64,000 bases of DNA from Nanobdellota archaeon. GTDB lineage: Archaea; Nanobdellota; Nanobdellia; CSSed11-243R1. Made by a program: the position numbers and the translations under genes. Where the stretch lies: positions 8,960 through 72,959 of the forward strand of contig JAGGYW010000013.1 of NCBI GenBank assembly GCA_021162365.1. The letters run 5' to 3'. Below are positions 1 to 56,541 of the stretch, in pieces. Each line of letters starts with the position of its first letter. The first letter of the stretch is position 1. The notes beneath the pieces are model-generated. The model worked only from the letters and a program-made list of their open reading frames with translations, searched no databases and was not told the origin of the DNA.

Positions 1-2246
1 ATAATGTAATCCCAAACTGCTTGGTCGCTCCAGCTTCTGCCCGCGTCTAAGAAACCGTCATATACAGAATATAAAGCAAGTATCACTTTGGATTCATTTT
101 TGTCTGTTATGTTAAAGCCCGATTCTTTTATTAGTTTGTCAAGTAAATCCATTCCGTCCATGTAACCCCCAAGATTCATTGGATATCCTGTTATTGTAGT
201 GGATGAAGTGACATTATGCAATCTTATGAATAATGCTCTCTTTTCTAAATCAGTCAGATTTTCATAAGCATTAACTATATCCACTATCATCTGGGCTTCG
301 CTTGCATTTATACCATCATGGAAATTATCGTCTTCAGAAAGCAAGAGCGTTAGGTTTCCATAGTTTTTCAATCTTGAAGTAACATTAAATAAGTCTGGAA
401 TTACGTTAAATTCTTCTTTAGATAGCATGTTGCTTGCAATATACCTCGCAAGCAACATTGGATTTATTTTACCTGTTGTTACTAATGCACGACTTGCATT
501 ATAGTGCCAGTCATCTCCTGCGGGGAACCAACTTAAAAAATCGGATGTGAAATTCATGTTTTCCTGTGTTCCATTTAGTTGGCGGAATACATTATTCCAA
601 TATAATGTAAACCAGTCGGTTGCTCTTGTCCCCACCGTTCCATTTAAAGGCGTTCCTCTTGAACCAAATAAGTTGTATTTATCATTTCCACCCAGCATTA
701 AAATTGGGAGTATTTCCTTAAGTGTGCTGTTTGTATCCTCTATGTATTTTGCTAAATTATTAACCCCGATTGTATCAACTTGTTTTTCAGCTAAATCAAA
801 TGCACCTTTAGTACTTAGTTTGTCTTCTTTTAGAAGAGGGAAGATTTCAGTGTAAAGCGCCCAAACAATTCTTGCTTGAGTTTCATTTTGCATGTTTATC
901 CCTTTCTTCTTTGCGAATTCGCCGGCAAGATATCCTATTGCATCACCTCCATCTCCATCGTACTTTTCTATTTCTTTTTTGATTTCACTTATTTCTTGTT
1001 GTGATGTTGTACTTTGCTCTGAGGTATTAATCTGTGAAGAATTATTATTTCCTTTTTTTGTTGGTATAACAAATGGATAGTTTGTTTTGTTCATTAACTC
1101 AAGGGGAACTATGTTCTTTTCTGGTTGGGTGAGTCTTACATATGAAGTGAATATATCTTTGATTAGTTGAGTTTCGCTTGCGTTTATTCCATCTTGAAAG
1201 TTGTTATTTTCTGAAAGCAGAAGGGTTAGGTTAGAATATTTACTTAAGTTTCCATCAACAGAGAGAATCTTTGGGAGGATGTTGAATTCTTCTCTTGAAA
1301 GTTGACTGCTTTTAATTAGATTGAAGAATTGGTCACCTGTTATGTTACCATCTGCTATAATTGATTGGGTTGCGTTGAAGTGCTCCCAGTTTGTGGCATT
1401 AAATGCACTGAGGAAGTGATCAAGGGCCGTGGAATTTATTGGTTCATTGAATAATTCACTATACATAGTATCCCAATGTGGCGGTTCAGGCATTTTTTGG
1501 AATGCTGCATATGCTGCTGTGAGGAGCGTTCCAAGTGCTACCCCAATAGCGACAATCTTTTTGAAGAGGGATTTTCTCTTTTTCTTCTTTGAAGGGACCC
1601 CACCTTTTTTATTATTCTCACATCCGTTTATGAATCCCTCTCTTGGTGCTTTTCCATTGTCTATGCTATTCCCATTTGTAAGTCCCTGTCTTATTGTTTT
1701 TGGAGAACGAAGGTTTAGCGGGTAACTATGGTTTTCTATTCTTTCGAGGAGATCTACCGCACCATGCTCTATAGCTGCTACTGCGAGATTTGCTTTGTGT
1801 TCTATTTCATCTTCATCACCATAATACTCTAGTCTATGCTCTTTTGGATTAAATTTAAATGGGAGGTTTTCTTCTTCTAAGATTTTTTCAAGAGTTGCTT
1901 GCTCCTCCTCGTTTAGCGGTTGTGTTATCTCTTCTTTTCTTTTCTTGTAAGCACCCCATACCCATGAGAATAAAATTCCATCTGCAACTTCTTTTGGAAT
2001 TCCGAAGTAGGAATCTAGCTTCTTTAAGATATCTCCAACGAAGAGAGTGGGAGCTATACTAATATTTCCTGCCTCATCTAGGCGTTCTAAGAAAGGCCAT
2101 AGTGCATTTACGGTGTAATTTACTAATTCCGGCGTTTCTTCTGGTGATAATTCCTTAGTTTCCCCAAATTTTATGAGCTCCTGCTCTATTGGTGAGAGTA
2201 AATTCATATCCCAAGGCGTCATTAGCGGTTCCGCTTCAGTTGACAT
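1..2246 (-). CDS. Partial CDS (N-terminal >748 aa; C-terminus beyond window start). Single-pass membrane glycoprotein: ~210-aa cytoplasmic N-domain, polybasic stretch KKKKRKSLFKK, TM IVAIGVALGTLLTAAYAAF, then an extracellular region dense in N-x-S/T sequons. Contains an internal ~300-aa tandem duplication (e.g. GNLTLLLSENNNFQDGINASETQ / GNLTLLLSEDDNFHDGINASEAQ).
   Basis: Manual reverse-complement translation from ATG at 2246 gives an uninterrupted frame to position 1. The ORF track omits it because it has no in-window stop. The repeat is visible at DNA level: ~1180-1310 resembles ~290-420. Confidence 0.6.
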   Translation of the reverse strand, partial: MSTEAEPLMTPWDMNLLSPIEQELIKFGETKELSPEETPELVNYTVNALWPFLERLDEAGNISIAPTLFVGDILKKLDSYFGIPKEVADGILFSWVWGAYKKRKEEITQPLNEEEQATLEKILEEENLPFKFNPKEHRLEYYGDEDEIEHKANLAVAAIEHGAVDLLERIENHSYPLNLRSPKTIRQGLTNGNSIDNGKAPREGFINGCENNKKGGVPSKKKKRKSLFKKIVAIGVALGTLLTAAYAAFQKMPEPPHWDTMYSELFNEPINSTALDHFLSAFNATNWEHFNATQSIIADGNITGDQFFNLIKSSQLSREEFNILPKILSVDGNLSKYSNLTLLLSENNNFQDGINASETQLIKDIFTSYVRLTQPEKNIVPLELMNKTNYPFVIPTKKGNNNSSQINTSEQSTTSQQEISEIKKEIEKYDGDGGDAIGYLAGEFAKKKGINMQNETQARIVWALYTEIFPLLKEDKLSTKGAFDLAEKQVDTIGVNNLAKYIEDTNSTLKEILPILMLGGNDKYNLFGSRGTPLNGTVGTRATDWFTLYWNNVFRQLNGTQENMNFTSDFLSWFPAGDDWHYNASRALVTTGKINPMLLARYIASNMLSKEEFNVIPDLFNVTSRLKNYGNLTLLLSEDDNFHDGINASEAQMIVDIVNAYENLTDLEKRALFIRLHNVTSSTTITGYPMNLGGYMDGMDLLDKLIKESGFNITDKNESKVILALYSVYDGFLDAGRSWSDQAVWDYI

Positions 2247-2368
2247 AATTTATAAAAAGAAGATTCCCTTTTTAATATTTACTATTTTTGAGTAACTACT
2301 ACCACGTAGGGTGTGAAAATTTCCTACAACCTTTTTAAGGGAGGAATGATTATGTCGTATAGGTAGAA
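2247..2368. promoter_or_regulatory. Divergent intergenic region between the two giant membrane-protein genes. AT-rich TATA-like boxes (tttataaaaaga, ttttaatattt), a GGAGG Shine-Dalgarno and a 4-codon uORF (atg tcg tat agg tag, 2352-2366) ending 2 nt before the 2369 start.
   Basis: Read directly from sequence. Archaeal BRE/TATA-like A/T hexamers. SD-like GGAGG at 2338-2342. Confidence 0.4.
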
Positions 2369-19401: not shown

Positions 19402-19475
19402 GGGCCGATAGCTTAACCTGGTAAAGCGCCGCCCTCGCACGGCGGAGACTCGGGGTTCAAATCCCCGTCGGTCCA
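19402..19475 (+). tRNA. tRNA-Ala (anticodon CGC). Intron-less. G3:U70 identity pair. CCA not encoded.
   Basis: Manual cloverleaf. Acceptor GGGCCGA/TCGGTCC, anticodon loop CTCGCAC, T-arm CGGGG-TTCAAAT-CCCCG. Confidence 0.85.
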
Positions 19476-19554
19476 CTAAAACCTTTTTCTTAAAAAGAAA
19501 AAGCTTTACCAAAAAGAAGGAATTGGAGAAGTCTTGAGGAAAAGAAGTTCTAGA
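19476..19554. repeat. tRNA 3' trailer carrying an AT-rich palindromic mini-hairpin (ctttttcttaaaaagaaaaag). Member of the TTTCTT..AAGAAA hairpin family seen elsewhere in the window.
   Basis: Seen in sequence. Confidence 0.4.
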
Positions 19555-20001: not shown

Positions 20002-20229
20002 TAAGTAGTTTTCAAGCTCTCTCTTCTAAATTCAGTGTATTCCTTCACCGTTTGAGATACGTTCATAATACCACTACTATCAAGTAGTGATTACGTATTT
20101 ATATATTTTTCGATAAAGTTTTCCTTCTTTTAGCAAAGCTCTTTTTAGTGCAGGTTTTCTCGTAGAGAAAAAGTGCTAAAGAAAGAAATTTTTCTCTTTG
20201 GTAAAGCTTTCTCTTTCTAAGAGAAAGGT

Positions 20230-20715
20230 TTATTGGTTGTCATATTTCATGACTTCATCTTGAAGCACTTCTAATTTGACTCCTGCTTGTTTGAAAAATT
20301 CCCTGGTTAGTTTGCCAGCATGGTATCTCTTTTTGCAAACGACTCTTTTTATTCCAGCATTGATTATCATTTTTGCGCAGGTTAAGCAAGGCTCCATGGT
20401 GCAATACATCGTTGCTCCATTTATTGCAATTCCATGTTTTGCTGCTTGTACTATTGCATTTTGTTCTGCATGTGTCGTCCTAATGCAATGCATAGATTCG
20501 TTTCCATCCTCATCTATGTATTTCATCATTAAATGCCCGACATCGTCACAATGTGGCAAGCCTGCAGGTGCACCTACATATCCTGTTGATAGGATCTGCT
20601 TGTCTTTTACTATTATTGCTCCACTTTTTCCTCTATTACATGTTGCTCTTTGGGCAACTGCATCAACAATTTGCATAAAATATTCATCCCAACTTGGACG
20701 TGCCATTTGTATCAC
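20230..20715 (-). CDS. dCMP deaminase (cytidine/deoxycytidylate deaminase zinc-binding family).
   Basis: HAEQNAI ... PCLTCAKMII zinc-ligand motifs. Confidence 0.85.
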   Translation of the reverse strand: MIQMARPSWDEYFMQIVDAVAQRATCNRGKSGAIIVKDKQILSTGYVGAPAGLPHCDDVGHLMMKYIDEDGNESMHCIRTTHAEQNAIVQAAKHGIAINGATMYCTMEPCLTCAKMIINAGIKRVVCKKRYHAGKLTREFFKQAGVKLEVLQDEVMKYDNQ

Positions 20716-26927: not shown

Positions 26928-27174
26928 GGCCCCGACGGGACTTTCGTGCAAGCCTTTTCTTAAAAAGAAAAGCCTTGAGGGAAAAGAAGTTTCTTTCCCT
27001 GCAGACTTTCTTTCCTAAAGAAAGGCTGCTTTCGAACCCGCAACCACCTGGTTTCTCCTCTCTTCTTTGCTCAAGCTTTCTTTCTAAGAAAGCTTGTCCG
27101 AAGCCAGGCGCTCTATCCAGGTTGCTTCAACACCTCTTCTTTCTAAGAAAAGGTGCTGATTAAGCTACGGGGCC
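26927..27174 (-). tRNA. tRNA-Arg (anticodon TCG) interrupted by three introns: D-loop, canonical anticodon-loop 37/38, and T-loop 59/60. 248 nt for a ~73-nt mature tRNA.
   Basis: Manual parse of the minus strand. Exons GGCCCCG-TA-GCTT-A..CCTGGATA-GAGC-G-CCTGG-CTTCGG[intron]A-CCAGG-TGGTT-GCGGG-TTCGAA[intron]T-CCCGT-CGGGGCC-T. Introns carry palindromic TTTCTT..AAGAAA mini-hairpins. Confidence 0.6.
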
Positions 27175-29448: not shown

Positions 29449-32400
29449 TCAACAGTTCATGGTTATTGTGATAGTTTGAGTATAACTACTTGCGGCTTGG
29501 TATTGTGGTACTCCTACTCCAAAGTAGGTTGTTATCGAATTTCCTGCTCCAAGATTTGTTGTTATCGCAGCATCTGTTGTTGTCAAGTCAGTTCCGCTTC
29601 CGTATGTAAATGCACTTGTACTCCATTCTGTGTTCCCAACTGCGAATGTGTTTCCTCCTCCATCACTCCAATCTGTTCCTCTAATGGTAACATTTGTTGC
29701 TGTTCCACTTCCAGAGTTGGTAATAGTAACATTTTGGTTTGTGCTTCCAGTATTTGTTCCTGGATTCACACTTCCAAAACTAATTGTGTTTGTGGATAGA
29801 GAAACTACACATGTTTGTGTGTTTAAAATTGTTAGATTTGTGAGTGGGTCATAATAATTGCTATATGTATTTGTTCCGTCCACATCTATTGCCCTGCATC
29901 TCAAATCAACATTTGTTTGGTCAGGGATGTTGGATACGTTCCATACAAATGTGCTTCCTTCGGTATGGTTCCCTATAGTTCTCCATTTTTTAACTAATCC
30001 CCAAGCACATTGGCTACATGATTGGCAGGATGTTTGGCTTGTGTATGTGTCACAATTTAAGTTTCCATTACAAGATTGGGGTACACTTTTTATGCCTGTG
30101 ATGTTCACACAGTCTAGGTAAGCATCATCTCTATTTCCCGAAAACTCTGTTTCAAATCTAATTGTAACCGAGTCATCAAATGTGCAATCGCTTGGAGTAA
30201 TTGTTACACACTGTTCATCTGTGCATCCATTTAGCCATTGGCCTTCCGTACCTTTTTCGTTTGGGCAGTAGGTCCACACTATGTTTCCATCACATTTTAG
30301 GTCTATACACTCTCCCGCCTCTATGCTTGTATAATATGCGGACCAGCTTATGGTTACGTTGGTATATCCTGTAAAGTTGAATGACTTTTCTGTATATGAG
30401 GTAGTGGTATCGTCTTGAAGGTGCCATGAGTAACTTCCTCCACTACTCCCATCATCTTGACAATTACTTGTTACACTACTCCAGTCCGAATCTGATCCTG
30501 GATCAGTCCATCCGTCTGGTCCCGATTCCCAGCCAGTATAGTAAATATTTGTCTTAGATGTTCCTCCTCCCCAGCTGCATCCTGCTGATGAACAATTACT
30601 ACAACTGCTCGAATCGCTGCATGCACTACAGCTTCCATTGTTGTAGCAGGAGTAATCACTATAATTTGCTTCTATAACGTACGTAATTGTATCTCCGTCC
30701 GGATCAGTGGAGCCGGAGCAAGTTATATTTACGCTGTTAGAGAAAGTTCTGTTACAGCTTCCTCCGTCACAACTTATGTTGGTAGGGGTGGTTGGTGGGC
30801 CCTCTTCTCCAAATAGATATTGGGTAGTTGAGTCTCTGCTCTGACTAATTGGGAATATAGCTCTATAGGCACTGCCGTCTTGTTCAAATTGAATCTGTGT
30901 GGCACTTAAGATTTGAGTCCAAATTCCATTTGAGTATTTGTATACCATACCGTTTGCATGGGATAAGTTGGTTACTTCTATGTATAGTTTTTCTGTGCCT
31001 TGGTCCCAATTTGAGTTTCCTGTAATATTGAATTTTATGTCTTTACCTGTATTTCTCTGTATTTTGTATATAAATTCTTTTGAGTCAAAACCAGTTATGG
31101 TACAATTTTCTACAGCAGTTATTGTTGCGGGATTCTCATGAAGAGAGTATATATTTTTTACGGTTGCATTTGAATTTCCGTCATAAAGGACAGTTATTGT
31201 AAATATATCATCATAGTTTTGTATGGAATTTGCGGAATACCAGAATTGATCGAAATAATCACTTCCATTCGTTTCTATATCTATTGTTGAGCTGTCTTGA
31301 TCTGTGGCTCCACTTGGCATTGCCTTTATTATCTTTCCGAATGCTAAATCGTTTGTAGTTGATCCATACCAACTAACCCACGAATTACTTGATTGATCAA
31401 ATACGTCATACACAGAATTTGAAGTTGAGGTTGTTGTGTCTGTCGGTCCCGCTTTGCTTCCGCCAGTATAATGTAAGCCATATGAATCATATCCACTTGT
31501 AGTATTTGTGTCATTTACCACGGTTAAAATTCGTAACCCATCATTGTATGTTCCAGCAAAGTTTATTGTTTTTATTCTTCCTACATAATAGTCATTATAG
31601 AAGTACCAATCTATGTATATCTGGCCCGACCAGTTTACCTCTACAGCGACTCTATAAGAGCCATTTTCTAAAATTGTTATATCTGTTGGAGTTACTTGGT
31701 TCGAGATTATATCGCTTATTGGTACGGTGATAAGTGGTTTGTATACTAATGCTACATAATCTGCTATGTAGCCTTGAGATAATTCTACGTTTGGATCGTA
31801 TTCTTTTGACCAGAAGTCTTTAACGTACCCCCATGATGTATAGGATGTGTTGTTACTGATACATACTTTGTATTTGTTTGTTTCCACAGTTATACATGTT
31901 CCATCTGCACTTACTACATATGCTGGGTCATTTGCAGATATATGGAGGGTGTAATTCTGTCCAGGTGTAACGTCAGCAATTTTTGTCCAGCTTCCTTCAC
32001 ATTCTCTTGAGCTAAAATTCCAATCTTTACATTTGTATATGAAGTTCCCCTTTGGTGTTATGGTTACATTCCCTTCAACAAATTTAACCTTTGGATCTAT
32101 TGCAAAAGATTGAACAGCATCTTGGATATTTGATGGAATATCTAAATCTAAGTCAACTATCTCATTTAATGTGGATTGTATCTCCACATTCTTTAGAGTT
32201 ATTGATTTAACAATGTGGTTTCTTGGAATTAATTTGATAGTATAGTTCCCCTTCTTTACGCTGATTGGAGTTCCTTCGGAGATAGCAATTAGCTTGTTAT
32301 TTTGGAATACTTTCGCAGTTGTTGGTATGTCTTTATTTTCAAAGTCCTTAATTTTTGGTGTGATTACTATGTACATCCTACCAAAATATGACGCGCTCAT

Positions 32401-33426
32401 ATTTGTTTCGTTTTTTGGGAGTTGGAATACAAATACCTCTGATTGATTTCCAACTTGAAGTTCAAAGCGGCTTCCATCCCATTTGTAAATGGTGAGAGTT
32501 ATGTTCTCATTAGGTGGTGCTGGGTATTTACTAAACCCATATGTTACGTTACCTATGATGTAGAATGGTTCCTCTTTTGTAGAGTTATGTGAAAAAACTA
32601 TTACAAAATTATCATTTTTCCAAGAAGTAGACAAAATTTTTACATCAAAGTTTTCGTCATCTTTTATCTTTTCATAATATTTTTCACTGCTCATGTTTTG
32701 GATCGCAGAAACATTTTCTTCTTGTACCTTTACAAATGAATACTGAATTTTGAATATCTTTACTTTTCCATTTCCATGTAATTCAAAGTAGAGTTTATAT
32801 GAAGAATAATTTAACTTTTTATCAAGTAGGTTACATGTTTCTTCGCAGACATAGTTAAGGGGCACAACTCTTGTAGCTTGTGTTGGGGTTTCTCCTCCAG
32901 TTTCGCCTTCTACACCCCCTTTTTCTTTTTGAGGGAGTGCCTTTTTTACATCTTTTATAAGGAATGCCGTCACACCTTTCATGGCAAGGAAGTCTTTCGT
33001 GTTTGCAATTAGGTATCTGTTTCCATCTTTATCCTCGAGGTATATTTGCGCGTCTCCGTCCCCTTCATATACTCCGGAAATTTTTATGGAACTTAAATAG
33101 CCCTTCACTTTGTTTTGTGGTTCCCAATTTACATATTTTGAATTTTCTACAATGATGTTTACATCATCTGTGAAGGAGATAATGTTGCTTTCGGATGTTA
33201 CGAATCCTTCAATTGATGGGGATATGTGTGTTACAAGTGTGTATGATACAATTGAGAGTAGGATGAAGACAATGAAGGGAAGAAATGGTCCCGCCCTCTT
33301 CCCTTTAAGTAACCTTTCTCTTATCATTCCATCAGTTACTTTCTTTTTGATGCCAATTATTTCGAGGGACTTTATCGTTTTTGGGTTTTGAAGATTAACT
33401 TTATACAGTGTTTTCTTGCCTTCCAC
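29449..33426 (-). CDS. Giant (1325 aa by track) surface protein. N-terminal signal-anchor (most plausible start ATG at 33327: MIRERLLKGKRAGPFLPFIVFILLSIV...). Huge Thr/Ser/Asn-rich extracellular region with Cys-rich modules. C-terminal domain is homologous to the 164-aa protein at 28463-28957.
   Basis: ORF track (the track start is GTG at 33426). See finding on the in-frame wHTH-like extension up to 33588. Confidence 0.7.
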   Translation of the reverse strand: MEGKKTLYKVNLQNPKTIKSLEIIGIKKKVTDGMIRERLLKGKRAGPFLPFIVFILLSIVSYTLVTHISPSIEGFVTSESNIISFTDDVNIIVENSKYVNWEPQNKVKGYLSSIKISGVYEGDGDAQIYLEDKDGNRYLIANTKDFLAMKGVTAFLIKDVKKALPQKEKGGVEGETGGETPTQATRVVPLNYVCEETCNLLDKKLNYSSYKLYFELHGNGKVKIFKIQYSFVKVQEENVSAIQNMSSEKYYEKIKDDENFDVKILSTSWKNDNFVIVFSHNSTKEEPFYIIGNVTYGFSKYPAPPNENITLTIYKWDGSRFELQVGNQSEVFVFQLPKNETNMSASYFGRMYIVITPKIKDFENKDIPTTAKVFQNNKLIAISEGTPISVKKGNYTIKLIPRNHIVKSITLKNVEIQSTLNEIVDLDLDIPSNIQDAVQSFAIDPKVKFVEGNVTITPKGNFIYKCKDWNFSSRECEGSWTKIADVTPGQNYTLHISANDPAYVVSADGTCITVETNKYKVCISNNTSYTSWGYVKDFWSKEYDPNVELSQGYIADYVALVYKPLITVPISDIISNQVTPTDITILENGSYRVAVEVNWSGQIYIDWYFYNDYYVGRIKTINFAGTYNDGLRILTVVNDTNTTSGYDSYGLHYTGGSKAGPTDTTTSTSNSVYDVFDQSSNSWVSWYGSTTNDLAFGKIIKAMPSGATDQDSSTIDIETNGSDYFDQFWYSANSIQNYDDIFTITVLYDGNSNATVKNIYSLHENPATITAVENCTITGFDSKEFIYKIQRNTGKDIKFNITGNSNWDQGTEKLYIEVTNLSHANGMVYKYSNGIWTQILSATQIQFEQDGSAYRAIFPISQSRDSTTQYLFGEEGPPTTPTNISCDGGSCNRTFSNSVNITCSGSTDPDGDTITYVIEANYSDYSCYNNGSCSACSDSSSCSNCSSAGCSWGGGTSKTNIYYTGWESGPDGWTDPGSDSDWSSVTSNCQDDGSSGGSYSWHLQDDTTTSYTEKSFNFTGYTNVTISWSAYYTSIEAGECIDLKCDGNIVWTYCPNEKGTEGQWLNGCTDEQCVTITPSDCTFDDSVTIRFETEFSGNRDDAYLDCVNITGIKSVPQSCNGNLNCDTYTSQTSCQSCSQCAWGLVKKWRTIGNHTEGSTFVWNVSNIPDQTNVDLRCRAIDVDGTNTYSNYYDPLTNLTILNTQTCVVSLSTNTISFGSVNPGTNTGSTNQNVTITNSGSGTATNVTIRGTDWSDGGGNTFAVGNTEWSTSAFTYGSGTDLTTTDAAITTNLGAGNSITTYFGVGVPQYQAASSYTQTITITMNC

Positions 33427-33625
33427 TTTTCTAATTAGATGATTTTGTTTGACTAAGTCATTTAAATGTCTGTGCGCAGGTTCGTATGATATCTTGAGTT
33501 TATCTTGTATCTCTTTGATAGAATACCATCTATTTGGATCACTGAATGCTCTTAATACTTCTAAGTAACTGTTTATTTTCTTTATAGTACCACCAATTTA
33601 TAGGAGAAAATAAGCGCTTAAAAAA

Positions 33626-33644
33626 CTATTGGATTATCCAATAG
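33626..33644. promoter_or_regulatory. 19-bp perfect palindrome ctattggat-t-atccaatag upstream of the giant surface-protein gene. Candidate operator for a winged-helix regulator.
   Basis: Seen in sequence. Adjacent TTTTTTAA TATA-like element on the minus strand. Confidence 0.4.
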
Positions 33645-33670
33645 AAGCACTTTTCTTTCTTAAAAAGAAA

Positions 33671-33692
33671 GAAACCTGCACTAAAGAAAGAA
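33671..33692. repeat. 22-nt exact repeat gaaacctgcactaaagaaagaa (second copy at 39280-39301), flanked by a TTTCTTTCTT-AAAA-AGAAAGAAA hairpin.
   Basis: Exact string match between the two loci. Confidence 0.6.
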
Positions 33693-33789
33693 ATTACTCT
33701 TTCCACAACTTACGCTTTGACAAGACTTCGTCTCGGCATAAGCGACGGAGTCGCTCTGTCTCTTCTTCCTAAAAAAGAAAGGGCAGAAG

Positions 33790-34047
33790 AGGGCCCGGTG
33801 GGACTTCCAAGCACTCGCCAAGAGTTTCTCTCTTAGCGCAGGTTCTCTCTTTTCAAAGAGAGAAAGTGCTTTCGAACCCACGACCCCTTGCTTGCCACGC
33901 TCCCTCTTTCTTTCCCGAGGGTTTCTTTCTCGGGAGAAAGAAAGGCTCTTAGGAGGCAAGTGCTCTATCCAAGCTTTGCCACGCACCCATTCTGCCAGCG
34001 CTTTTCCGTGCACGCTTTTTTAAAGGGTGCGTTTGAGCTACGGGCCC
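33790..34047 (-). tRNA. Candidate tRNA-Arg (anticodon CCT) with multiple introns: D-loop, anticodon loop, T-loop 59/60. The variable region is atypically long (possible extra intron), so the model is tentative.
   Basis: Manual parse. GGGCCCG-TA-GCTC...CTTGGATA-GAGC-A-CTTGC-CTCCTAA[intron]GCAAG-...-GTGGG-TTCGAA[intron]T-CCCAC-CGGGCCC-T. Introns contain gtttctttctcgggagaaagaaagg-type hairpins. Confidence 0.45.
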
Positions 34048-34101
34048 TTTTGTACAATAACAATCCAATTCTTTTTAAAATTTAACTTTCTAAAATTAGA
34101 T

Positions 34102-38834: not shown

Positions 38835-39125
38835 TTATCTGTCTGCTTTCTTGAATAACCTCATTGCCTTTGAAAGATGTTCTGCTATATCTCTTCCAAG
38901 AGGAGTTAGTTTAATTGTTTTTAGTCTGCCCTTTTTGTCAAACTCTACAAGCCCATGATCTTCCATGGTTTTTAGAATCCTTACAGTGTGAGAGTATGTG
39001 CAATCAACCTCTTTTGCAAGCACAGATGCATACCTTAGCTTGTGATCTTTTGCTAAATTTAGCAATATGTTTACTGGTTTTTTTCTTAAGAAAAATGAAT
39101 AGAGATTTTTTTTCTTAGCACCCAT
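38835..39125 (-). CDS. Small winged-helix transcriptional regulator (ArsR/MarR-like, 96 aa).
   Basis: ASVLAKEVDCTYSHTVRILKTMEDHGLVEFDKKGRLKTIKLTPLG. Confidence 0.55.
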   Translation of the reverse strand: MGAKKKNLYSFFLRKKPVNILLNLAKDHKLRYASVLAKEVDCTYSHTVRILKTMEDHGLVEFDKKGRLKTIKLTPLGRDIAEHLSKAMRLFKKADR

Positions 39126-39348
39126 ACTCTAAAGTTAAAATAGTTGCTTTAATAAATCTTTCGCAGCACCTTCTTAGAAAGAAGCTGCACCAAGAAAATC
39201 TTTCTCTTAAAAAGAAAGCTTAACTAAAGAAATTTTTTTCTCTTAATGCATGTTCTCTTTTCTAAAGAGAAAATGCTAAGAAACCTGCACTAAAGAAAGA
39301 ACATTTCACTTTTCTTTTTTGTAAAGCTTTTTAAGAAAAAGGTTTTAA
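39126..39348. repeat. Intergenic block packed with TTTCTT..AAGAAA mini-hairpins (cttcttagaaagaag; tctcttttctaaagaga) and the 22-nt repeat (39280-39301).
   Basis: Seen in sequence. Same motif family as the tRNA introns. Confidence 0.45.
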
Positions 39349-39422
39349 TGGGCCCGCTGGGATTTGAACCCAGGTCCCAGCCTCCGCAGGGCTGTATTCT
39401 ATCCAAGCTAAACTACGGGCCC
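39349..39422 (-). tRNA. tRNA-Arg (anticodon GCG). Intron-less. CCA not encoded.
   Basis: Manual cloverleaf. Acceptor GGGCCCG/CGGGCCC, anticodon arm CAGCC-CTGCGGA-GGCTG, T-arm CTGGG-TTCAAAT-CCCAG. Confidence 0.8.
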
Positions 39423-39503
39423 AAATTTAAAAAGCAGAGTTTGCTTTATAAATGTTGATTTATGCTTCTCTCCAGTGACGAAATCTTTTTAACTTAACTA
39501 TTT

Positions 39504-55518: not shown

Positions 55519-55698
55519 TGGGCCCGCCCAGATTTGAATTCCCCGACCCCGTCAACTTCTTTTCCGTTGACGCTTTTCTTCTTAAGAAAAGGGTCACTGG
55601 GGACCTCCCGCGTGTAAGGCGGACGTCATAACCATTCTCCACTCCTTTCTTTGGTGCAGCTTTCTTTTCCAAAGAAAGGTGCGCTAGACCACGGGCCC
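55519..55698 (-). tRNA. tRNA-Val (anticodon TAC) with two introns: D-loop, and T-arm 53/54 or 59/60 (boundary ambiguous). No canonical anticodon-loop intron.
   Basis: Manual parse. GGGCCCG-TG-GTCT-AGC[intron]TGGTTA-TGAC-G-TCCGC-CTTACAC-GCGGG-AGGTC-CCCAG[intron]TTCAAAT-CTGGG-CGGGCCC-A. Introns contain cctttctttgg...ccaaagaaagg and cttcttaagaag hairpins. Confidence 0.55.
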
Positions 55699-56363: not shown

Positions 56364-56541
56364 TGCGCCGTCCGGGATTCGAACCCGGGTTACAAGCTCT
56401 TCACACACCCTTTCCGTACACGCTTTCGCTTGCGAAAGGGTGTTGGCAAGCTCGCGTCCTAACCATTGTCCGTTCCTTTCCTTTCTTGGCAACCTACCTT
56501 CTTTTCTAAAGAAGGCGGAAAGGTCGCTAGACTAACGGCGC
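56364..56541 (-). tRNA. tRNA-Gly (anticodon GCC) with two introns: a ~60-nt D-loop intron and a canonical ~45-nt anticodon-loop intron.
   Basis: Manual parse. GCGCCGT-TA-GTCT-AGC[intron]TGGTTA-GGAC-G-CGAGC-TTGCCA[intron]A-GCTTG-TAAC-CCGGG-TTCGAAT-CCCGG-ACGGCGC-A. The anticodon intron has an ACACCC/GGGTGT helix. Confidence 0.65.

Follow-up and report, generated by a model that had tools for sequence, protein, structure and literature searches.

What are the short AT-rich hairpins that recur both in tRNA introns and in free-standing intergenic DNA of an uncultured archaeon, and what maintains them in such different places? The locus in question lies around positions 33,600-33,790 of a 64,000-nt stretch of the Nanobdellota contig JAGGYW010000013.1, which was analyzed as a whole and is denoted here as the window. 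It shows a G+C content of 36%, and the nearest public sequences belong to the uncultured DPANN archaea 'archaeon Dive96_bin10.467' (Dive96) and 'Nanobdellati archaeon S014' (S014). An earlier note, made from the sequence alone, had assigned the hairpins of the introns and of the intergenic DNA to one dispersed repeat family. This assignment stands; the family has conserved flanks and extends far beyond the genome of the window. In the reading favored here, given about even probability, it is a structured cassette resembling repetitive extragenic palindromes (REPs) and miniature inverted-repeat transposable elements (MITEs), which would propagate and be turned over as DNA and be tolerated in tRNA genes.

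The frame around the hairpins

The emphasis initially laid on TTTCTT/AAGAAA stems proved to be off target, since the stem sequence varies by compensatory change and it is the surrounding frame that is conserved. When the copies are oriented by their ctgcac motif, they show a common frame that is fixed as AGCAC-T-(pyrimidine arm, loop, purine arm)-C-CTGCRC-T and has a second purine tract behind it. The ctgcac/gtgcag motif does recur with the hairpins, as the earlier note had seen, but it is not merely adjacent to them: it constitutes one half of this frame, AGCAC(T)-hairpin-C-CTGCRC-T. The proposed cassette would open with a prefix of 4-5 nt, continue with a hairpin (pyrimidine arm, loop, and purine arm), and close with an 8-nt spacer and a second purine tract, with the mini-hairpins as variable cores and AGCAC…CCTGCRCT as the frame of one subfamily.

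The pattern AGCACTTT-N8-30-AACCTGCRCTAA matches three times in the window, compared with 0.00 expected from shuffles: in the T-loop intron of tRNA-Arg(CCU) (33833-33870, minus strand) and in two free-standing copies (33646-33684, plus strand, and 20145-20177, minus strand). A covariance model, R1, detects four strong and three weak copies. The free-standing full copy at 33643-33694 (plus strand) reads AGCAC-T-(TTTCTTTCTT aaa AAGAAAGAAA)-C-CTGCAC-T-AAAGAAAGAA, scores 56.8 bits with R1 (E = 4e-8), and is predicted to fold as GCA..hairpin..UGC plus a second hairpin (z = -5.1). The latter, GAAAGA/TCTTTC at 33686-33703 (plus strand), uses the mirror purine tract behind the 8-nt spacer as its 5' arm in the minimum-free-energy fold. 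Relative to the tRNA gene at 33791-34047, this copy is antisense and lies about 100 nt downstream; it holds the 22-mer GAAACCTGCACTAAAGAAAGAA (33671-33692), whose exact recurrence on the same plus strand at 39280-39301 was confirmed.

A second free-standing full copy (20135-20180, minus strand; R1 54.4 bits), AGCAC-TTTTTCTC tac GAGAAAA-CCTGCACT-AAAAAGAG, is located downstream of a co-directional cytidine-deaminase gene (20230-20715; Pfam dCMP_cyt_deam_1), at a distance of 52 nt from its stop codon. Right after this stop codon begins a sister cassette with the spacer CTTTACC (20185-20229, minus strand), CCTTTCTCTT aga AAGAGAAAG-CTTTACC-AAAGAGAAAAA. Cassettes of the CTTTACC type also form the 3' trailer of tRNA-Ala(CGC) (19477-19520, plus strand; CCTTTTTCTT aaa AAGAAAAAG-CTTTACC-AAAAAGAAGG) and the trailer behind tRNA-Arg(GCG) (39310-39347). 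Close to the latter, a degenerate full copy (39233-39280, minus strand; AGCAT-…-CATGCATT; R1 37.5 bits, E = 9e-5) shows C-to-T decay in both frame motifs and overlaps, in opposite orientation, a partial copy consisting of spacer and mirror tract (39257-39303, plus strand; R1 22.7 bits), which holds the second exemplar of the 22-mer. A variant copy at 39162-39203 (plus strand; AGCAC-CTTCTT aga AAGAAG-CTGCACC-AAGAAAA; R1 22.4 bits) adjoins the promoter region of a minus-strand winged helix-turn-helix (wHTH) gene (38835-39125).

The hairpins are more numerous than composition predicts and are concentrated at tRNA genes. Perfect homopurine/homopyrimidine hairpins of at least 7 bp number 24 in the window against 10.1 expected from shuffles (maximum 16), and 10 of the 12 hairpins of at least 8 bp lie within tRNA genes ± 300 nt, i.e. 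in 7.2% of the window (P = 2e-10). The individual hairpins quoted previously were found in their places, as were those outside tRNA genes (19483-19503, 20155-20171, 20207-20227, 33652-33674, and 39253-39271); these free-standing hairpins adjoin tRNAs. Generic low complexity, with neither enrichment near tRNAs nor conserved flanks, had been named as the outcome that would speak against a family; the enrichment and the conserved flanks are both present.

When 42 distinct copies are aligned, 96.7% of the stem cells are paired, and compensatory double changes are seen in 72 cells; the score for covariation amounts to 0.573, compared with 0.204 in shuffles (0/500), and slid controls are at most 72% paired. 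That AGCAC and CCTGCRCT do not vary among these copies is imposed by the search pattern. The frame was also found without being searched for, in 47 of 86 matches to a hairpin plus mirror copy, and an independent constraint on it is seen in 59%-GC genomes, where it is kept, and at orthologous sites, where it persists beside fully diverged hairpins. The count of G.U versus A.C pairs in the stem, meant to show which strand is selected as RNA, is 6 versus 4 and gives no strand call. As a side observation, an A.C mismatch recurs at stem position 7 (TTCTTT-A…C-AAAGAA) in copies from different genomes of Micrarchaeota (L006, L010, L020, and L102), and may represent a conserved non-canonical pair.

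The spacing between hairpin and second purine tract is equally characteristic. A search for purine-armed hairpins followed by a mirror copy gave 61 cases with an 8-nt spacer against 0-6 at spacings of 2-11 nt (14 at 12 nt); with the CTGCRC class excluded, 26 cases remain at 8 nt against 0-1 at 7 and 9 nt, and 10 occur at a spacing of 12. Spacers fall into several classes: CCTGCRCT; CGTNNACG and CTTTACC, which are classes besides that of R1, the CTTTACC class being seen by eye in tRNA trailers; and further CGTGCACG, CGTGTACG, CGTTGACG, CGTCAACG, CGTTCACG, CCTTAAGG, CCTTGAGG, CCCTCGGG, CGCCAGCG, CGCTGGCG, and TCTGCAGG. In each class, four spacer nucleotides are complementary to the 4-nt prefix, so that the hairpin is extended past a C.C (or CU/CC) mismatch.

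Cassettes in multi-intron tRNA genes

ARAGORN and Rfam alone report only two tRNAs in the window, both intron-less, namely tRNA-Ala(CGC) (19402-19476, plus strand) and tRNA-Arg(GCG) (39348-39423, minus strand). A scan for acceptor stems yielded four further genes, all on the minus strand and with two or three introns each (ten introns in total). Their two to three introns hide four of the window's six tRNA genes from ARAGORN and from the Rfam tRNA model. Removal of the introns in silico restored a tRNA in all four cases. ARAGORN recovered tRNA-Arg(UCG) and tRNA-Val(UAC) outright, its call for the other two depends on the cut (Pyl-CUA/Arg-CCU and Trp-CCA), and the Arg(CCU) and Gly(GCC) anticodons were read by eye from the loops CUCCUAA and UUGCCAA. 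The introns, with boundaries accurate to ± 2 nt, are located in the D-loop and at positions 37/38 or 38/39, 53/54, and 59/60; 59/60 and 53/54 are intron hot spots known in ARMAN-2 (PMC3239211).

The gene next to the free-standing copy, tRNA-Arg(CCU) (33791-34047, minus strand), is interrupted in the D-loop (~33973-34033), at 38/39 (~33896-33948), and in the T-loop at 59/60 (33804-33870). This T-loop intron is a full sense copy of the cassette on the minus strand (R1 57 bits; fold z = -4.3), composed of a closing helix AAGCACU/AGUGCUU, hairpin 1, the spacer CCUGCGCU, and hairpin 2 (CGCUAAGAG/CUCUUGGCG), and its predicted splice sites form a relaxed bulge-helix-bulge from UUCG of the T-loop and UGGA of the intron. 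tRNA-Val(UAC) (55520-55698, minus strand) harbors a D-loop intron (55635-55682, minus strand) with the frame GCAC-…-CTGCACC (R1 19 bits) and a 53/54 intron (55539-55596, minus strand) made up of the bulge-helix-bulge helix CCCC/GGGG, an inner helix GACCC/GGGUC, and hairpins 1 and 2; in the predicted fold, hairpin 2 is CGUCAAC/GUUGACG with the mirror tract as its loop. tRNA-Arg(UCG) (26928-27174, minus strand) shows introns in the D-loop (27122-27157), at 37/38 (27053-27097), and in the T-loop at 59/60 (26941-27030). The T-loop intron starts with the variant frame AGCAG-…-TCTGCAGG-GAAAGAAA and carries a second cassette in the opposite orientation (26953-26990; spacer CCTTGAGG). tRNA-Gly(GCC) (56365-56541, minus strand) is interrupted in the D-loop (56466-56525) and at 37/38 (56399-56443; spacer CGTGTACG). 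The presence of a hairpin in every intron, as had been claimed, applies to nine of the ten, which hold a pyrimidine-arm/purine-arm hairpin of at least 6 bp; the D-loop intron of the gene at 33791-34047 holds only a weak one.

Inspection and minimum-free-energy folds, made with no dedicated bulge-helix-bulge scoring, show exon-intron junctions with a helix-bulge-helix arrangement, either canonical or relaxed. At the 53/54 junction of tRNA-Val, CCCC/GGGG is flanked by AG/U and AA/U bulges. The 59/60 junctions combine UUCG with CGAA or UGGA and carry one additional nucleotide on the 3' strand, i.e. the relaxed form. From these modeled junctions we infer that the inserts are bulge-helix-bulge tRNA introns, which would be spliced by the endonuclease; no gene for this enzyme lies in the window.

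Comparison between tRNAs and between relatives reveals a turnover of these introns. A 65-67-nt T-loop intron is 91-100% identical among six tRNAs, i.e. five different tRNAs of S014 and tRNA-Arg(CCU) of the window, whose flanks are only 46-67% identical; the intron of the window is 91-97% identical to those of the five S014 tRNAs. Those four nucleotides of the intron which pair with the T-loop change in step with UUCG/UUCA. The tRNA-Gly of the window lacks a T-loop intron, and its S014 orthologue (L039) possesses one. Between the window and Dive96, the exons of tRNA-Arg(CCU) are identical, the T-loop and 38/39 introns are other cassettes of the same design in Dive96, and the D-loop intron occurs in the window only, being missing from Dive96. 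The free copy at 33646-33694, together with an adjacent 19-nt palindrome and A/T box, is 100% identical to Dive96 (L029), and its surroundings have diverged. Near-identical introns in unrelated tRNA bodies and gain or loss between close genomes, the hallmarks of a transposed intron family, are both observed here.

The vicinity of the free copy shows additional features. The perfect 19-nt palindrome (33626-33644; CTATTGGAT-T-ATCCAATAG) lies between the free-standing element and the A/T box (TTTTTTAAG, minus strand), is 100% conserved with Dive96, and was flagged as a terminator-like site of a hairpin plus T6 on the minus strand; it could be an operator of the downstream winged-helix-like gene or a terminator of tRNA read-through. 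Between the trailer of tRNA-Arg(CCU) and the free element, a G+C-richer stretch (33715-33760) with the hairpin AGCGACGGAGTCGCT has no Rfam match and is missing from the orthologous region of Dive96. On the minus strand, an open reading frame (ORF) of 1325 aa (29449-33426) remains open for 57 codons further, up to a TAA at 33598-33600, and contains no ATG, GTG, or TTG there; the last 53 of these codons (IKKINSYLEVLRAFSDPNRWYSIKEIQDKLKISYEPAHRHLNDLVKQNHLIRK) resemble a winged-helix domain, which suggests a non-canonical start or a putative wHTH fused to a large membrane/surface protein. The layout of 33300-34047, a minus-strand tRNA followed by a cassette cluster and then a small winged-helix gene, recurs at 38835-39423, where the winged-helix gene (38835-39125) matches Pfam HVO_A0114/HTH_27.

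Mobile cassette or conserved RNA element

One scan of a species-representative genome collection (one genome per species, that of the window not being among them) found the framed pattern in 103 loci, about 88 of them archaeal, all with a hairpin, and about 15 bacterial, all without one. R1 recovers 93 copies from the archaeal loci, and from the 12 bacterial pattern matches searched it recovers none; the bacterial matches are due to chance. The archaeal hosts comprise Micrarchaeota, Iainarchaeota, Woesearchaeota, Pacearchaeota, Nanoarchaeota, and unclassified DPANN, as well as ANME-1/Methanophagales and related metagenome-assembled genomes (MAGs), including a 1.19-Mb ANME-1 contig. These loci were gathered with a pattern that fixes the frame, many derive from MAGs, whose taxonomic labels may err, and the copies are not independent samples.

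Within tRNA introns, copies of the AGCAC subfamily are always in sense orientation, be it at T-loop position 59/60 (…GGTTCRAA followed by AGCAC…), in the anticodon loop, or in the D-loop. Deletion of the element, in sense orientation, restores a tRNA recognized by ARAGORN at 19 loci, i.e. 18 single-intron tRNAs and L017, where the element abuts a tRNA 3' end; many further intron copies reside in multi-intron tRNA genes. Outside tRNA genes, 12 copies lie with their AGCAC no further than ± 2 nt from a co-directional ORF's stop codon, usually as TAG followed by CAC or TAA followed by GCAC, and these ORFs, identified from their sequence with no Pfam scan, encode among others the ribosomal proteins L15e (at one and the same site in three genomes) and S10 and the large subunit of PolD. 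Sense copies abut tRNA 3' ends at L017, L038, and L069, and antisense copies abut tRNA 5' ends at L025, L033, L061, L076, and L089. Clusters, overlapping copies in both orientations, and tandem arrays also occur. One such array, in L089 (uncultured archaeon SRP178699_co1_626, ~1950-2300, minus strand), is built from units of ~52 nt, CTGCACT-hairpin(TCTTTTAC ttt GTAAAAGA)-C-CTGCAC-TAGAAAGGCGTTGTTACGC, in which the 3' frame motif doubles as the 5' motif of the next unit. A separate observation concerns three loci of ANME-1-type MAGs, in which an ORF continues past AGCAC into the element and ends at differing points, in the hairpin loop (L043) or past the spacer (L008, L032), so that the element encodes a variable C-terminal tail.

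These placements fit a cassette whose copies would survive only at harmless sites of very compact genomes. One type of harmless site would be gene boundaries, with copies lying flush with stop codons, start codons, or tRNA ends; the other would be the D-, anticodon-, and T-loops of tRNA genes. In such a loop, 5' AGCAC is proposed to pair with 3' GUGCU and four exon nucleotides with four nucleotides near the 3' end of the intron, and the resulting (relaxed) bulge-helix-bulge would be cut out by a splicing endonuclease of broad specificity. The cassette would be tolerated in tRNAs because this enzyme removes it. Once established in a tRNA, it could spread to the same loop position elsewhere, likely by gene conversion or a homing-like process via the conserved loop flanks. 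The family is multi-copy, dispersed, hairpin-forming, and mostly extragenic, with a motif at the foot of the hairpin, as is typical of REP/MITE-type repeats. Signs of mobility are the exact 22-mer at two loci, the decayed and overlapping copies in both orientations, and the tandem arrays. Among three readings offered by the earlier note, that of mobile mini-introns is the best supported, by near-identical introns in non-orthologous tRNAs and by presence, absence, and replacement in close relatives. Mobility at the DNA level, a mobilizing activity, and the splicing itself are what we infer from these patterns.

Several results weigh against a purely mobile element. An all-versus-all clustering of 2,255 ORFs from 88 loci (whole genomes were not searched) returned housekeeping synteny only, with neither a transposase nor any other protein family recurring next to copies. 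The combination of terminal inverted repeats and variable target-site duplications known from classical MITEs is missing: the direct repeat on the flanks, GCAC…GCAC, stays the same from site to site, and no empty/filled pair shows a duplication. No copies were found in 2.9 million viral contigs (IMG/VR). From 59%-GC Micrarchaeota to ANME-1 the motifs of the frame do not vary, the orthologous copies behind L15e in three genomes keep the frame with a fully diverged hairpin, and the ANME-1 element is more conserved than the adjacent coding sequence. An invariant frame and conserved orthologous sites are the signature of purifying selection on a function and not of a purely selfish repeat, and this conservation has to be read as partly circular, given that the pattern forces the frame, and as drawn from many MAGs and from phylogenetically non-independent copies.

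Such selection is the core of the foremost alternative, which we consider possible but clearly less probable than the mobile cassette: a cis-acting RNA module for 3'-end formation, processing, or stabilization (terminator- or insulator-like), kept by selection and captured by tRNA introns. AGCAC-U-rich hairpin-CCUGCAC would then mark the ends of transcription units, i.e. of mRNAs, tRNA trailers, and regions upstream of promoters. The 12 copies starting within ± 2 nt of co-directional stop codons (L15e, S10, and PolD among them) accord with this idea, as do spacers between convergent genes that are little more than the element (L005, L045, and L101), the conserved frame with its covarying hairpin, a U-run behind AGCAC and A-runs flanking the spacer, kept even in GC-rich Micrarchaeota, and two loci of the window at which copies separate a tRNA from the promoter of the co-directional gene that comes next. 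However, no U-run follows the hairpin, and a scan for terminator-like sites gave 19 against 14.8 expected, i.e. no enrichment; among the cassette hairpins of the window it flags only 20207-20227, and none of the AGCAC-framed copies. Many stems are free of any run of at least five U (e.g. TTCTCTCTT), at least 18 tRNA genes hold a sense copy, and no tRNA could be made if transcription ended there, and free copies occur in both orientations relative to neighboring genes (24 vs. 23 upstream, own count). No Rfam family matches the element. In the window, only tRNA exceeds the Rfam gathering threshold, and relaxed scans of 33580-34080 and 39100-39450 returned noise. The related proposal of the earlier note, a terminator or processing element captured by tRNA genes, is supported by the copies abutting the stop codons of L15e, S10, and PolD, kept at orthologous sites, and is weakened by the lack of a hairpin-plus-U-run match and by the position of the element inside tRNA genes. 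The mobile-cassette and cis-acting readings are not mutually exclusive. Bacterial REPs are both dispersed repeats and elements acting in cis at RNA ends.

A further feature is the mirror tract. The purine tract behind the spacer complements the pyrimidine arm in parallel register, i.e. it mirrors the purine arm. This register-specific complementarity (X[k]:X''[k]) reaches 97.6, 97.6, 85.7, and 73.8% at four informative column pairs (slid controls at most 76%), the mean mirror run is 6.84 compared with 4.29 ± 0.19 after permutation, and asymmetric tracts are exact mirrors over 11-14 nt at L038, L047, L054, L057, and L069. In predicted folds, the tract supplies the 5' arm or the loop to a second hairpin, or belongs to the closing helix; these roles need only complementarity to a pyrimidine run and so do not explain mirror symmetry, which is what an intramolecular triplex would require. 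One strand might accordingly fold into a triple helix via the mirror tract, a reading that follows from sequence logic and that we regard as unlikely. Antisense RNA (with Y for pyrimidine and R for purine, Y-spacer-Y-loop-R) could form U.A-U and C+.G-C triples as a 3'-end cap resembling that of the element for nuclear expression (ENE) and MALAT1, and the sense strand (Y-R-R) could form a purine-motif triplex, as DNA only. The exact 8-nt spacing of the mirror copy, its register, and the 11-14-nt mirrors speak for this, and five antisense copies flush with a tRNA 5' end and with a co-directional ORF upstream reproduce the MALAT1-mascRNA layout. Against it, the strand transcribed in introns and after stop codons is Y-R-R, for which we know of no stable RNA triplexes; the predicted folds assign the tract to the second hairpin or the closing helix; and many tracts are periodic or symmetric, so that a mirror copy and a shifted direct copy are indistinguishable. 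In an extended version, equally improbable, the hairpin, 8-nt spacer, and mirror tract would be a triple-helix module capping RNA 3' ends in the Y-Y-R orientation (including ends made by RNase P at tRNA 5' ends), the frame would dock a factor common to DPANN and ANME-1, and the tRNA introns would be domesticated or parasitic copies.

It is very unlikely that some of the intergenic copies are fragments of tRNA (or other RNA) genes that are split or permuted, with trans-splicing via AGCAC/GUGCU pairing. The AGCAC end does always face the adjoining tRNA or gene, and AGCAC-U-run and A-run-GUGCU correspond to the halves of the intron closing helix, following the logic of split-tRNA leaders. Yet the tRNAs adjoining free copies are complete according to ARAGORN, the copy at 33643-33694 has no GUGCU partner, and the unrecognized split RNA genes once suspected here found no support, no tRNA halves or Rfam families being present beside the free copies of the window. 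Generic low complexity of AT-rich intergenic DNA, suggested by stems that are low-complexity purine/pyrimidine runs in a 36%-GC genome, is refuted by the three framed matches against 0.00 in shuffles, the 10 of 12 long hairpins in 7% of the window (P = 2e-10), the occurrence of the frame in 59%-GC genomes, and the rejection of all 12 bacterial chance matches searched by the model.

Other candidates were tried and discarded. C/D-box and H/ACA RNAs, CRISPR repeats, ribozymes, and a pyrrolysine insertion sequence (PYLIS) or other recoding signal were assessed by eye; the boxes are missing, spacing follows no regular pattern, and reading frames are not consistently extended past the stop. For a bulge-helix-bulge internal to the element, the GCAC repeats of the sense strand cannot pair, and antisense GUGC/GUGC pairs with two G.U wobbles, which is too weak and not general. 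A bulge-helix-bulge formed by post-ORF free copies with their flanks is suggestive at L054 (UAA in the bulge), but the orthologues L056 and L091 lack it.

The cassette among known systems

A full-text search of the open-access literature, motif strings included, gave no published description of the element, and several known systems invite comparison. Archaeal intrinsic terminators depend on oligo-U tracts. The cassette resembles them in its U-rich tracts on both strands and its placement at gene ends; it differs in that its U-run forms the 5' arm of the hairpin instead of a tail, is often interrupted, and that the element is tolerated within tRNA genes. The ENE/MALAT1 systems share with the antisense element the order of U-rich tract, short spacer, U-rich tract, loop, and A-rich tract in U.A-U register, and five copies end at a tRNA 5' end, reminiscent of MALAT1 with its 3' end generated by RNase P. 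This likeness is one of sequence logic, most copies are transcribed in the other orientation, and we know of no ENE/MALAT1-type structures in archaea.

Closer parallels exist to REPs and bacterial interspersed mosaic elements (BIMEs). These short, imperfect palindromes, whose hairpin bears a conserved short motif at its foot, are present in many copies in both orientations and in clusters, extragenic and right after genes, associated with REP-associated tyrosine transposases (RAYTs), and with side-effects on mRNA ends. Rickettsia palindromic elements also occur inside genes, including RNA genes. The cassette has in common with REP/BIME the palindrome with its foot motif, both orientations, clusters, and the placement at gene ends. 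It differs in its archaeal hosts, in the lack of a RAYT/IS200-like gene near any copy (88 loci), in the insertion into tRNA loops with predicted rescue by splicing, and in the extra mirror purine tract at a fixed distance of 8 nt.

As to tRNA introns, ARMAN-2 and other Micrarchaeota possess non-canonical introns at 59/60 and 53/54 with relaxed bulge-helix-bulge motifs (PMC3239211), and DPANN archaea show splicing endonucleases with an L3 loop and a high load of disrupted tRNA genes (PMC5829648). Insertion positions and relaxed junctions are the same in the window. The two studies give positions and enzyme specificity, and no conserved intron sequence family or intergenic relatives (PMC3239211; PMC5829648); the strings AGCAC and CUGCAC are absent from the ARMAN-2 intron study (PMC3239211). 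DPANN tRNA sets are often reported as incomplete (PMC5829648). The tRNA sets of genomes with such multi-intron genes will look incomplete to standard tools, and masking of the cassette would improve the tRNA annotation of DPANN genomes.

A further counterpart is found in Thermoproteales, where very similar short introns at both canonical and non-canonical sites of unrelated tRNAs imply a recent spread (PMC4090602; PMC3239211). Their transposition is thought to take place at the DNA level by a mechanism stated as unknown (PMC4090602), and they are tolerated owing to a splicing endonuclease of broad specificity (PMC4090602; PMC3239211). Near-identical short introns in unrelated tRNA bodies are common to both systems. 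The family described here differs in its DPANN/ANME-1 lineage, in a core that is a defined cassette with an invariant frame common to several phyla, and in its occurrence outside tRNA genes, at ORF and tRNA boundaries, for which no report from Thermoproteales was found in the accessible literature (Fujishima et al. 2010 not covered). With an intron core that is a recognizable sequence element also outside tRNA genes, the origin and spread of introns become testable and can be tracked by a covariance model. The picture of intron transposition drawn from Thermoproteales is thereby extended to DPANN archaea, and is complemented by a recognizable free-living relative of the introns.

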